A DNA stretch of 64,000 nt from Nitrospirota bacterium. Its GTDB lineage: Bacteria > Nitrospirota > Thermodesulfovibrionia > Thermodesulfovibrionales > Dissulfurispiraceae. Made by a program: the position numbers and the translations under genes. Of this stretch, positions 27,361 through 30,678 are shown in pieces. The notes beneath the pieces are model-generated. The model had not been told where the DNA came from. It saw only the letters and a list, made by a program, of their open reading frames with translations, and made no database searches. Position 1 is the stretch's first letter; each line of letters begins with the position of its first letter. Where the stretch lies: positions 2,903-66,902 of the forward strand of contig JADFXI010000002.1 of the NCBI GenBank assembly GCA_015233655.1, read 5' to 3'.

Positions 27361-30300
27361 ATGGCTTCCAATGATGACAGACCATGCAGGTCAAATGGCG
27401 TTGTTTTTGATTCTATTAGAATCGGTTTGTTAACCTCTAGAGCAACAGGTTTGCTGTCCTACGGCGAGGTTTCTTCCCCGGAAACATTCAATGTTAGGAC
27501 CGGCGAACCGGTCACAAGTGGGCTGTTCTGCGAAAGAATTTTCGGCCCTGTGAGAAAAGGCAAATGTTACTGCGGCGCAGATAACGGCGTAGTGGGGGAC
27601 GGTGCTGTATGCAGGGATTGCAGTGCCGCGCTTTCAGAGCCCGGTGACAGGAGGCGTAGACTCGGCCACATAACTCTTGCAGCACCTGTTGTGCATATAT
27701 GGTATTACAAAGGACAGAAAAGCATAATTGCCAGGCTACTTGGACTGCCGCCAGGACAGGTCCAGAAAATTGTGCGTTATGAACTTTTTGTTGTAATAGA
27801 GCCGGGCGCAAGCGGGCTTAAACATAATCAGATCATATCAATTGAGGAGTCCGGAAAGTACAGGTCTGTGTGTCCCGATTTCCATGCAGGGACGGGTGCG
27901 GACGCAATTAAGGCGCTGCTGAAGAACATCAACCTGAATGACCTTTCAAATAAAATTAAAGAGGATAATTACTTATCCGTAAGAAAAAGAAACAAACTCT
28001 CTTTAGTCGAGAAACTCCTAAAGTCCGGCAACAGTCCGGAATCGATGATTATAGAGGTATTGCCTGTATTGCCGCCTGACTTGCGTCCCGTGATTTTTCT
28101 CGATAATGGGACTATAGTTGCCTCCGATCTTAATATGCTTTACAGCAGGGTTATTTACAAGAACCAGAGCCTGCGGAGGCTGATCCACCTGGGCGCGCCG
28201 GAGATTATACTGCATAATGCAAAAAGGCTTCTTCAGGCTGCCGTGGACAGCCTGCTGGATAATGGCAGAAATGTTACGGCTACCAGCCGGTCTCAAAAAA
28301 AACCGCTTAAATCGCTTTCAGATATGATACGCACCAAGAAGGGAAGATTCAGGGTCAATCTTCTTGCCAAACGGGTCGACTATTCGGGAAGGGCGCAAAT
28401 TACGATAGGGCCTGAACTTAAAATACACCAGGTAGGGATTCCGAAGGCAATGGCACTGGAACTTTTCAAGCCCTTTATATACAGATGGCTTATCAAGAAG
28501 GGTTTTGCACCGGGGCTGAAACAGGCAAGACAAATCTTCGAGGCCGAGAAGCCGGAAGTCTGGGATGCCCTGGACGATTCGATTGCCGAGCATCCTGTGA
28601 TAATTAACAGGGCGCCGACCCTACATAAATTGAGCATGCAGGCCTTTGATCCTGTTTTGGTTGAAGGTGCTGCTCTAAGGCTTCATCCCCTCGTATGTTC
28701 GGGATTTAATGCAGACTTTGACGGAGACACCATGGCAGTGCATGTTCCCCTGTCTTTTGAGGCACAGATAGAGGCCAGAGTACTTTTAATGTCTGTTAAT
28801 AATTTATTTCATCCGGCAAACAGCAGACCCGCATTATTGCCGTCACAGGATATTGTCTTGGGCATTTATTATCTGACGAAAGAGAAGAAAGAAGGCAAAG
28901 GCGGAGGAATGTTCTTCTCTGATGTGGATGAAGTTTCTATTGCCTACGCAAACAACATTCTAGAGGAAAATTCAGGTATATTTGTCAGAATAGGCGGCGC
29001 TCTGGTAAGCACGACAGCGGGCAGAGTGCTGCTTTATTTAATAACTCCACAAGGCATCCCGTTTGCAGCTATTAACAGGCCGCTGAAAAAAAAAGACATT
29101 GCTGATTTGATAGAGCTGTGTTGGGAGAAGTGTGGCGCAAGAGAAACTGCAAGATTTCTGGATGACATAAAAGAGATGGGGTTTAAGCATGCAACGTTAT
29201 CAGGAATTTCCCTTTGTCTTGATGACATGCGGGTGCCTGCCGGCAAGAAAACCATTGTACGTGAGGCGGAAGTTGAAGCAGCCGAAGTGAAAACTCATTA
29301 TGAAGCCGGTCTAATGTCTGATAATGAGAGGCACAGAAAGGTAATTGAAATTTGGAGTAAAGCTGTAGACAGGGTGACGTCGGAAACTATGCTCGCACTG
29401 AAAGAAAGCCAACCTGAGGAAACAAATGTGTTATTTATGATGGCGGATTCGGGAGCGAGAGGGGACATTAATCAAATACGCCAGATAAATGGAATGAGGG
29501 GGCTGATGGCCAAGCCCACGGCGGAGATTGTAGAAGTCCCGATAACGTCAAATTTCGTGGAAGGCTTGAGCACATTCGAGTTCTTTCTTTCGACTCATGG
29601 GGCCAGAAAAGGGCGGGTTGACGGCCCACTTAAGACGCCCCTTGCAGGTTATTTCACAAGGAGACTTGTGAGCGCTGCACGAGATGTTGTTGTCACCACT
29701 CATGACTGCGGCACTATCGAGGGTATTTATCTCGAAACGCTTGTAAGCAACGGAGTTGTGGTGCTATCTCTGGAGGAAAGAATAACGGGCAGGACACTGG
29801 CCGATAATGTATTGGGCCCGAATGGCCGAACTGTTCTGGCATCGTATGGCACCATACTGGACAAAGAGTCCGCGGCAAAAATCTCGGCTGAAGGCATAAA
29901 AAGGGTCAAGGTGCGTTCAGTGCTTACCTGCAAGGCGCAGTCAGGAGTTTGCGCTGTCTGCTATGGATTCAATCTCGGCAGCCGCATGCCTGCGGAAATA
30001 GGAGATGCCGTGGGCGTTATCGCAGCACAGTCAATAGGAGAGCCCGGCACTCAACTCACCTTGAGGACGTTCCATACGGGCGGGGCAGCCGTCGCACCGG
30101 GAGTTAACGCAGTATCTTCAGCCAAAGAAGCAATCAAAACAATGGATATAACCGGAGGGCTTCCAGGAGTCATTGATCTTTTTGAAGCGAGAAATCCTGA
30201 AGATGCAGCAGGGGGAAATTGCCGAGAGCTATTGAAAACATCGGGAGCTGACGCAGTATGGAAATATATAATTGACGAGGCACAGAAGATATACCGTCAA

Positions 30301-30678
30301 CAGGGTGTGGTAATACATGACAAGCATTTTGAAATAATTACGAAGCAGATGACGGGATTCGTTAAAATCACGGAACAAGGGGGATCGGCATTATTGCTGG
30401 GTGAAATAATCCGGAAGAGTGAATTTGCCTCCGCGTCTGACAAAGCCAGGAGCAGGGGTCTAAAGCCTCCTGTTGCCTCCCCTGTGCTGTTGGGGATAAG
30501 TCAGATACCTCAGTATTACAATAGTTTTCTTGCATCGGCTTCGTTCCAGAGGACAACCACTGTATTAGCGGATGCTGCATTTGAAGGTAAAGCAGACCCG
30601 CTGCAAAGTAATGCCGCACGGATAATCACAGGGAAACTAGTGCGGGCCGGCACAGGTCTTTTTGTTAAAGAACACTGA
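27361..30678 (+). CDS. RNA polymerase beta-prime (RpoC) paralogue, compact and orphan
   Basis: Zn finger CYCG...CRDC; [25 protein letters not shown]; catalytic [14 protein letters not shown]; SGARG; bridge helix STHGARKG; second Zn site HDCG / [13 protein letters not shown]; trigger loop [21 protein letters not shown]; C-terminal GKLVRAGTG. Only 1105 aa, with no rpoB adjacent. Confidence 0.85.
   Translation: [1105 protein letters not shown]

Follow-up and report, generated by a model that had tools for sequence, protein, structure and literature searches.

The window analysed here, a stretch of 64,000 nucleotides from a Nitrospirota bacterium (assembly GCA_015233655.1, contig JADFXI010000002.1, positions 2,903 to 66,902 of the forward strand), carries a type IV secretion system (T4SS) element and, within it, a gene for an unusual form of the RNA polymerase (RNAP) beta-prime subunit, which we refer to as rpoC-prime. 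The 1105-aa open reading frame (ORF) starts with ATG, has no alternative start among its first 20 codons, and its product corresponds to MBF0557265.1. Pfam analysis revealed all five Rpb1 domains (PF04997, PF00623, PF04983, PF05000 and PF04998), the rpoC equivalog model TIGR02386 scored 1249 bits against a cutoff of 963.5, and the top matches in the PDB, both by sequence and by fold (Foldseek), were bacterial beta-prime chains throughout. By domains and equivalog score, the ORF is a full bacterial RpoC. The gene and its elements are located as follows:

27361..30678, plus strand: rpoC-prime, short-form orphan beta-prime paralogue, 1105 aa (assigned from ORF, domain, tree and dN/dS data)
27565..27621, plus strand: N-terminal Zn ribbon, C69/C71/C84/C87 kept, inter-Cys sequence different from canonical
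28123..28263, plus strand: clamp (sigma-docking) helices with R270S, N274Y, R275K, R278S, R293H and E295A (E. coli numbering)
28708..28728, plus strand: catalytic NADFDGD (Mg-binding Asp triad), aa 450-456, the same in 44 of 44 aligned sequences
29575..29685, plus strand: bridge helix, with the signature D-G-P-L-K-T-P at 29620-29640
29707..29961, plus strand: second Zn site, C783/C857/C864/C867
30022..30192, plus strand: trigger loop arms, R902/H905 retained, M932L (E. coli numbering)
30085-30144, plus strand: 20-aa linker in the trigger loop, replacing the SBHM insertion (SI3) of relatives
30193..30234, plus strand: scar left by a 57-aa jaw deletion
30601..30657, plus strand: region H, rewritten from canonical LRGLKENVIxGRLIPAGTG

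Retained and remodelled elements of the protein

All motifs listed in an earlier, sequence-only reading of this DNA (Zn1, NADFDGD, Zn2, trigger loop and C-terminal AGTG) were located in the window protein; the trigger-loop motif covers aa 888-908, the C-terminus ends in an RAGTG motif, and a 10-residue motif named in that reading corresponds to aa 234-243. Its broader statement, that essentially every hallmark of RpoC is kept, proved accurate for the catalytic, zinc and trigger-loop residues, but not for the bridge helix, which carries two prolines, nor for region H. The same pattern runs through a family of 17 related proteins, for which the invariance of motifs was judged in a 44-sequence alignment. 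All 17 members kept (E. coli numbering here and in the following) the Zn1 cysteines C70/72/85/88, NADFDGD, the Zn2 cysteines C814/888/895/898, R933 and H936. The 19 canonical proteins compared, E. coli among them, share 467 invariant columns. Family members retain 68-75% of these, and 205 are invariant in the family as well. A further 53 are altered in 17 of 17 members, in many cases with a different residue now fixed, and these changes cluster in the zipper/Zn-ribbon (25-121), the lid and clamp helices (252-298), switch 2 (333-366), the bridge helix (783-802), the trigger loop (M932L) and region H (1346-1358).

The bridge-helix motif DTALKTA has become D(G/S/A)P(L/M)(K/R)TP in the family and DGPLKTP in the window protein, with prolines at positions 787 and 791 in all 21 family sequences with a readable motif, compared to none of 412 other beta-prime sequences. 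Measured against the proline-free bridge helix of canonical RpoC, the window protein therefore falls outside. Natural bridge-helix prolines are reported to be exceedingly rare: a few bacteria have one at a single position of the N-terminal hinge, and plant Pol IV/V have one at the C-terminal hinge (PMC2988716). In archaeal RNAP the substitution A822P leaves the enzyme active and S824P renders it hyperactive (PMC2776397, PMC2988716); by motif register, E. coli A791 is the counterpart of archaeal A822. Within the sigma-docking helices, R275 is replaced by K, R278 by S or N and R293 by H, Q or V across the family, and E295 by A in the short clade; R275Q, E295K and A302D have been reported to impair holoenzyme formation (PMC8321222). 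The family-specific remodelling affects elements that govern sigma docking, RNA exit/hybrid separation and translocation. Taken together, the 53 changed invariant columns, the double-proline bridge helix and the known tolerated or activating prolines make altered properties of the family protein plausible.

Comparison of the window protein with a canonical beta-prime (P0054) and with a long paralogue of the same family (P0016) revealed three missing segments: a loop of 11-14 aa that follows the rim helices, 157-167 aa from the SBHM insertion of the trigger loop (SI3), and 57 aa of the jaw. The reduced jaw had been recognized from the sequence, and the larger source of the shortness, the loss of SI3, had gone unmentioned. 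As the deletions are common to all short members, they have a single origin within the family. In E. coli, SI3 and jaw deletions reduce pausing and shorten the life of the open complex, and the short form is thus predicted to behave unlike the host enzyme. The suggestion that the protein is shorter than any housekeeping beta-prime did not prove safe, since two unrelated beta-prime proteins of about 1114 aa (P0351 and P0408) also lack SI3 and the jaw; compactness alone is therefore not unique to the short clade. Both are devoid of bridge-helix prolines, and the proline-free bridge helix of P0351 is partly divergent (RADGALRTSNAGYFS). The distant family member P0018 (locus L063, 10001-14206) contains a K/E-rich insertion of about 25 aa in the rim-helix tip of the secondary channel and a second lineage-specific insertion of about 50 aa near E. 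coli position 150.

Family, phylogeny and canonical counterparts

A search of 5.8 billion proteins returned a further 12 short proteins, seven of them 1088-1127 aa long and the others shorter or partial, with 67-76% identity to the window protein, or 13 short proteins counting the query's own cluster, beyond which similarity falls sharply. The next matches, P0014-P0018 (1306-1401 aa), showed 53-58% identity, with 46-48% to ordinary Nitrospirota beta-prime. Canonical Nitrospirota beta-prime proteins are 72-86% identical to one another (common alignment), and one Oligoflexia protein is 62-66% identical to the canonical Nitrospirota copies; the 17 unusual proteins share 45-51% identity with any canonical sequence and 51-78% with each other. 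The phylogeny called for by the sequence-only reading was calculated as a neighbour-joining tree (47 taxa, 1077 columns, 200 bootstraps), which set the family apart from canonical beta-prime: the 17 members formed one clade and the short forms a subclade, each in 200 of 200 bootstraps. The family clade branches outside the canonical Nitrospirota cluster and has a long stem, and given the neighbour-joining method and the long branch its point of origin is unreliable.

HMMER searches over 1.84 billion cluster representatives revealed only 3 above the canonical background, which indicates a rare and narrow family. A protein search of PLSDB returned only ordinary rpoC or mislabelled chromosomes, all below 60% identity, a viral contig collection gave 0 matches to rpoC-prime, and a peptide-pattern scan of a genome collection yielded, among the matches listed, distant housekeeping rpoC only (L001-L055). 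No description of such a beta-prime paralogue was found in the searchable literature. Pairwise dN/dS values of rpoC-prime ranged from 0.10 to 0.23 (0.20-0.23 for pairs with unsaturated dS of 0.33-0.39), from which we concluded that the gene is functional and under purifying selection; the corresponding values for TraC, TraG, the relaxase-like gene and ParM of the element were 0.04-0.09.

Coexistence with a housekeeping copy is proven for one long-form member. Assembly GCA_046350935.1 contains the canonical order tuf-rpmG-secE-nusG-rplKAJL-rpoB-rpoC (P0054, 1377 aa) on JAXLZK010000006.1 as well as the T4SS-linked long form P0016 on JAXLZK010000018.1. The two stretches agree in GC content (59.3 and 59.9%) and tetranucleotide usage (r = 0.95), their protein accessions lie 1076 apart, and the compositional likeness renders mis-binning unlikely. 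For the genome of the window, a canonical rpoC is probable: the canonical 1369-aa beta-prime P0246 (MBF0558091.1) bears the same organism label, follows MBF0557265.1 by 826 accessions, and resides on a shorter contig than that of the window, as size-sorted contig numbering would give. P0246 is 92% identical to P0054, 88% to the protein of Dissulfurispira thermophila and 49% to the window protein. The amino-acid composition of P0246 was considered as a clue to the GC content of its genome and rejected, because the composition of canonical beta-prime is too constrained. The D. thermophila contigs of 2.37-2.45 Mb with canonical P0255/P0256 contain no family member, and neither do other multi-megabase contigs with canonical beta-prime; this absence is consistent with an accessory gene. 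The difference between host and paralogue divergence (92% vs 56%) was also considered, and by itself it cannot separate horizontal spread from fast vertical evolution.

The locus in relatives and the surrounding element

Genomic contexts were read for 12 loci, comprising short forms (L056-L059, L067-L069), long forms (L060, L061) and distant members (L063/L064, L065). The recurrent gene order is (VirB11-TraC-)TraG, a relaxase-like gene, 0-3 small ORFs and rpoC-prime, usually followed by ParR-like and ParM genes on the opposite strand; the latter pair lies 3' of rpoC-prime in L056-L061 and L065. The succession TraG, relaxase-like gene, rpoC-prime was found in L057-L061, L063-L065, L067 and L069, and in these loci as in the window rpoC-prime is linked to both a VirB4/TraC ATPase and a VirD4/TraG coupling protein; L056 and L068 retain the downstream part. 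In 12 of 12 contexts, rpoC-prime thus belongs to the constant gene set of a T4SS element, which supports the earlier proposal of a second beta-prime encoded by a mobile element in accessory DNA. As that reading had also noted, no rpoB lies upstream, nor anywhere else in the window, and a search of 309 kb covering the window and the 12 family loci revealed no RpoB-like coding sequence, although the positive control L062 was found.

By sequence identity, the genes of the element co-diverge with rpoC-prime. Between the window and L057-L059, identity amounts to 86-87% for TraC, 82% for TraG, 87-88% for the relaxase-like protein, 78-81% for ParM and 73-75% for rpoC-prime; towards L060/L061 the values are 61-62%, 49-53%, 52-56%, 48% and 57%, respectively. 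In long-form loci rpoC-prime starts 10-16 nucleotides after the preceding gene and in L057/L059 after 42 nucleotides, a spacing that makes co-transcription with the transfer genes probable in the relatives. The gene had been described as monocistronic, which applies to the window, where an opposite-strand insertion separates it from the transfer operon, but not to the relatives with their 10-42 nucleotide gaps. Cargo at a similar junction in relatives comprises HigBA and a restriction-modification system in L059 and chemotaxis-type genes in L058. In L056 (1-23312 of the 1.74-Mb contig ERZ25039480:contig_6404), the T4SS genes are gone, and a molybdopterin oxidoreductase cluster, FKBP and PIN genes occupy their place upstream; rpoC-prime, the thioredoxin-like gene, ParR/ParM and HD are kept, which implies that the paralogue can persist without transfer genes. 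Directly 3' of the gene for the 1401-aa P0018, a gene of the zf-dskA_traR (DksA/TraR) family was observed at 14279-14707 in L063 and at the same coordinates in L064, so that elements of this family also carry a classic RNAP-targeting factor.

In the window, the element occupies the left 37 kb. Its genes and those directly beside rpoC-prime are:

3117..15503, plus strand: mating-pair/pilus genes (prepilin, three T2SSE ATPases, GGDEF, TraU-like, TraF/thioredoxin-like, TraG_N-like)
15651..25481, plus strand: T4SS transfer/DNA-processing module, 59-88% identity and synteny with L057-L059, L067 and L069
15651 and 16188, plus strand: SLT and VirB11-like genes, respectively
17143-19794, plus strand: TraC/VirB4
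20254-21765, plus strand: DnaG-like primase, 503 aa (TIGR01391, E 1e-10, below cutoff)
21753-23768, plus strand: TraG/VirD4 coupling protein
23765, plus strand: relaxase-like gene, 262 aa
24564, plus strand: conserved 305-aa ORF
25490..27248, minus strand: window-specific insertion of dienelactone hydrolase (DLH), RES and Xre genes, found in no relative
26371-26832, minus strand: RES toxin
26829-27248, minus strand: Xre antitoxin
30756..31343, plus strand: thioredoxin-like gene, 77 nucleotides 3' of rpoC-prime, with in-frame TGA at 30852-30854
31439-31762, minus strand: ParR-like gene, small partner of ParM, convergent with rpoC-prime
31778-32833, minus strand: ParM/ALP actin, convergent with rpoC-prime
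34276-35325, plus strand: HD (dGTPase-like) gene, PADLOC anti-phage dGTPase model, E 3e-43
35543-36652, plus strand: PLD (DrmC-like) gene, DrmC-type models

The position of rpoC-prime between a RES/Xre pair (26371-27248, minus strand) and a ParMR locus (31439-32833, minus strand) is as first described. The relaxase-like gene shows weak Replic_Relax matches in relatives, and the window copy has no Pfam or NCBIfam match. The HD and PLD genes are kept beside the ParMR locus in L057 and L059, so that the element can be said to carry defence-type cargo. The thioredoxin-like gene follows rpoC-prime in four of the five short-form loci that extend downstream and is absent from L057. Its in-frame TGA falls into a conserved G-U-I-G-C (UxxC) motif in the window, L056 (13353-13946), L058 (21567-22160) and L059 (13320-13940), and the gene probably encodes a selenocysteine-containing redox protein; gene callers divide it at the TGA into ORFs of 32-41 and 157-159 aa.

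Further observations concern the remainder of the window. Between 3117 and 9303 (plus strand), type IV pilus-like genes (prepilin, T2SSE ATPases, GGDEF) and F-type TraU/TraF-like genes form an unusual mix. Weak homologues of the DnaG-like ORF lie 5' of TraG in L063 and L065 and were not found in L057-L059. The 1.4-kb gap upstream of parM contains AT-rich direct repeats of about 21 bp (33238-33299), a possible parC centromere, and a 69-nucleotide unit (GC hairpin, T-run and AAAGGAG) occurs twice with 77% identity (33778-33846 and 34222-34290) before small ORFs. Two small adjacent ORF pairs at 1348-1955 and 2160-2885 (plus strand) resemble toxin-antitoxin pairs by eye. From about 37 kb rightwards, the window consists of ordinary chromosome (OYE, rhomboid, GroEL, MltG, IspG, GlnE, CheW, MCP, GlnA, Amt), and the element and chromosome halves differ little in composition (GC 46.1 vs 47.3%, tetranucleotide r = 0.94). 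Searches of the window for sigma factors, beta paralogues, tRNAs and Rfam RNAs were all negative, and a sigma-70 promoter scan gave no more sites than shuffled sequence and none upstream of rpoC-prime.

Proposed role, alternatives and known systems

With moderate confidence, we favour the view that rpoC-prime encodes an accessory beta-prime of a T4SS element from Dissulfurispiraceae-like Nitrospirota that most likely forms an alternative RNAP core with host beta and alpha. Catalysis requires a second double-psi barrel that beta-prime alone does not provide. As rpoC-prime supplies only one catalytic barrel and no beta is encoded by the element, a hybrid with host alpha, beta and omega is the simplest working model of the enzyme. 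In this scheme the host would retain its normal rpoB-rpoC operon, rpoC-prime would be expressed together with the transfer genes, and its product would replace the host beta-prime in a fraction of cores (alpha2-beta-beta-prime*-omega). The outcome would be a second polymerase that differs from the normal one in its use of sigma, in the stability of its open complexes and in how it pauses or elongates. It may act on behalf of the element, for instance in the expression of transfer or establishment genes during element activity. We infer, in other words, that rpoC-prime may remodel the host RNAP. A more specific version is possible and offered tentatively: the element-encoded isoform could swap into the host core as a specialized second polymerase, a bacterial analogue of Pol IV/V whose bridge helix is permanently kinked by its two prolines and whose sigma docking is altered. 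It would be used in DNA transfer or establishment (for example, transcribing or priming on incoming DNA) or to evade the control that host or phage exerts on RNAP.

Several observations weigh against this hybrid-polymerase view or against mobility of the element. Position 787 (equivalent to mjA' A818) falls in the central proline-sensitive segment of the bridge helix (PMC2988716). Changes affect the sigma-docking helices, region H and further motifs close to interfaces, so that assembly with host subunits and sigma is not guaranteed. The dN/dS of rpoC-prime is 2-4 times that of the neighbouring T4SS genes, a weak constraint for a polymerase core subunit, and its amino-acid composition tracks host GC, which that of canonical beta-prime does not. 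An AF2 monomer model (pLDDT 70, below 50 in active-centre and interface segments) proved uninformative on the geometry of the active centre and bridge helix. Paralogy in the window's own genome is argued from accession proximity alone, and every family sequence is metagenome-derived. Regarding mobility, the window yielded no att sites and, among its annotated ORFs, no integrase, with the left end of the element lying outside it, the relaxase match of the element is weak, and the chromosomal OYE flank common to the window and L057 favours inheritance; the patchy distribution and the flanks of L060/L061, which differ from those of the window, favour mobility.

Among the alternatives, evasion of inhibitors, or defence, appears unlikely. 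It draws on the same hybrid enzyme: an RNAP that has lost or altered the surfaces bound by phage proteins, toxins or antibiotics (jaw, SI3, clamp helices, bridge helix) would keep up some transcription in the donor or recipient cell while the normal RNAP is inhibited. Phage T7 Gp2 binds to the jaw, and jaw and SI3 are precisely what the short clade lost; defence-type cargo lies nearby (the dGTPase-like HD, the DrmC-like PLD and toxin-antitoxin pairs), and the gene adjoins the relaxase-like gene, where early-entering 'leading region' genes often sit, an argument from position only. However, the long forms retain SI3 and the jaw at the same locus, so that surface loss was not the founding function of the family; the window protein matches 0 PADLOC defence families, and no RNAP inhibitor is known for these hosts.

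We likewise regard a role outside transcription as improbable, be it as a decoy or sponge for sigma factors or RNAP regulators, as a DNA-binding protein that travels with the DNA and acts in establishment, or as a relaxosome scaffold. Such a role would suit a gene that sits in the DNA-processing module beside the coupling protein and the relaxase-like gene, whose sigma-docking helices and region H are altered, and whose constraint is weaker than that of the T4SS genes. A decoy, however, needs neither the Asp triad nor the trigger-loop R/H or the NTP-contact motifs, all of which are invariant in a family whose members are 51-78% identical; a DnaG-type primase is already present in some elements, and beta-prime lacks the second barrel, with no beta-like partner encoded. 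The narrower idea of beta-prime as a conjugative primase was rejected on account of the lacking barrel and the presence of the DnaG-like primase.

A decaying or neutrally hitch-hiking rpoC duplicate without present function is very unlikely. The gene evolves faster than its neighbours, the short clade has lost domains and the composition drifts with host GC; yet all complete members are intact full-length ORFs across deep divergence, dN/dS is 0.10-0.23 and not about 1, 205 of the 467 canonical-invariant columns are still invariant with many changed columns re-fixed, and rpoC-prime was retained in L056, where the T4SS genes are gone. A self-resistance duplicate of the rpoB(R) type would be expected in or beside a biosynthetic gene cluster for an RNAP inhibitor, which does not fit the T4SS, toxin-antitoxin, partition and defence-type neighbours in every context. 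Finally, that the gene is the sole housekeeping rpoC in an odd gene order, or an artefact of assembly or binning, is hardly credible even though no canonical rpoC shares a contig with any short form, since the short relatives all lie in the T4SS/ParMR module without rpoB, the arrangement recurs in several projects, on at least 12 independent contigs of up to 1.74 Mb (which excludes the assembly error separating the gene from rpoB that the sequence-only reading had considered), canonical rpoBC and P0016 occur together in one assembly, the window protein and a canonical beta-prime are separated by 826 accessions, and the canonical beta-prime of the clade is 88-92% conserved, compared to 49% identity between the paralogue and canonical.

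Bacterial RNAP is usually viewed as a single invariant core that is reprogrammed only by sigma factors and accessory proteins. If rpoC-prime assembles with host beta, core-subunit swapping would be a route by which mobile elements rewire transcription. Models of translocation, pausing and the stability of open complexes could then be tested on a natural polymerase with two bridge-helix prolines and without jaw and SI3. The family would further serve as a warning for phylogenomics and for the quality control of metagenome-assembled genomes, which assume a single-copy rpoC.

The closest comparison is canonical RpoC itself (TIGR02386), with which rpoC-prime shares the full domain set, NADFDGD, two Zn sites, trigger loop and fold, the equivalog cutoff being passed; it differs as a second copy not adjacent to rpoB, with 45-51% identity, a bridge helix with two prolines, and clamp helices and a region H that are rewritten; the short clade also lacks SI3 and the jaw. 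Plant Pol IV/V (NRPD1/NRPE1) resemble it in that a divergent largest subunit is used alongside shared subunits. In contrast, the plant enzymes are eukaryotic and nuclear-encoded and have a paralogous second-largest subunit too, while no beta paralogue was seen in rpoC-prime loci and the sharing of subunits is what we infer here. Rifampicin-resistant rpoB(R) duplicates of actinomycetes likewise represent a second core-subunit gene that yields an enzyme of altered properties. In Francisella, two non-identical genes (alpha1/alpha2) provide one RNAP core subunit in one genome, so that the enzyme differs in composition or properties (PMC3294249). Unlike rpoC-prime, both of these cases are chromosomal, concern alpha or beta, and are untied to a transfer element. 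F-plasmid TraR (DksA-like), for which structures with RNAP are available (PDB 5w1s, 6pst), is the product of a transfer-region gene acting on host RNAP, but a small binder of the secondary channel, whereas rpoC-prime is a whole catalytic subunit. The split beta/beta-prime sets of phiKZ and AR9 and YonO of SPbeta are polymerases of the two-barrel family encoded by mobile elements. These are extremely divergent and self-sufficient and contain both barrels, whereas rpoC-prime shares about 50% identity with cellular beta-prime and lacks a beta partner. Mobile elements are thus known to bring sigma factors, small RNAP binders and complete foreign polymerases, but, to our knowledge, not a near-complete catalytic subunit of the cellular type without its partner; the family described here points to the possibility of a mobile element providing the cell's core transcription enzyme in a form of its own.

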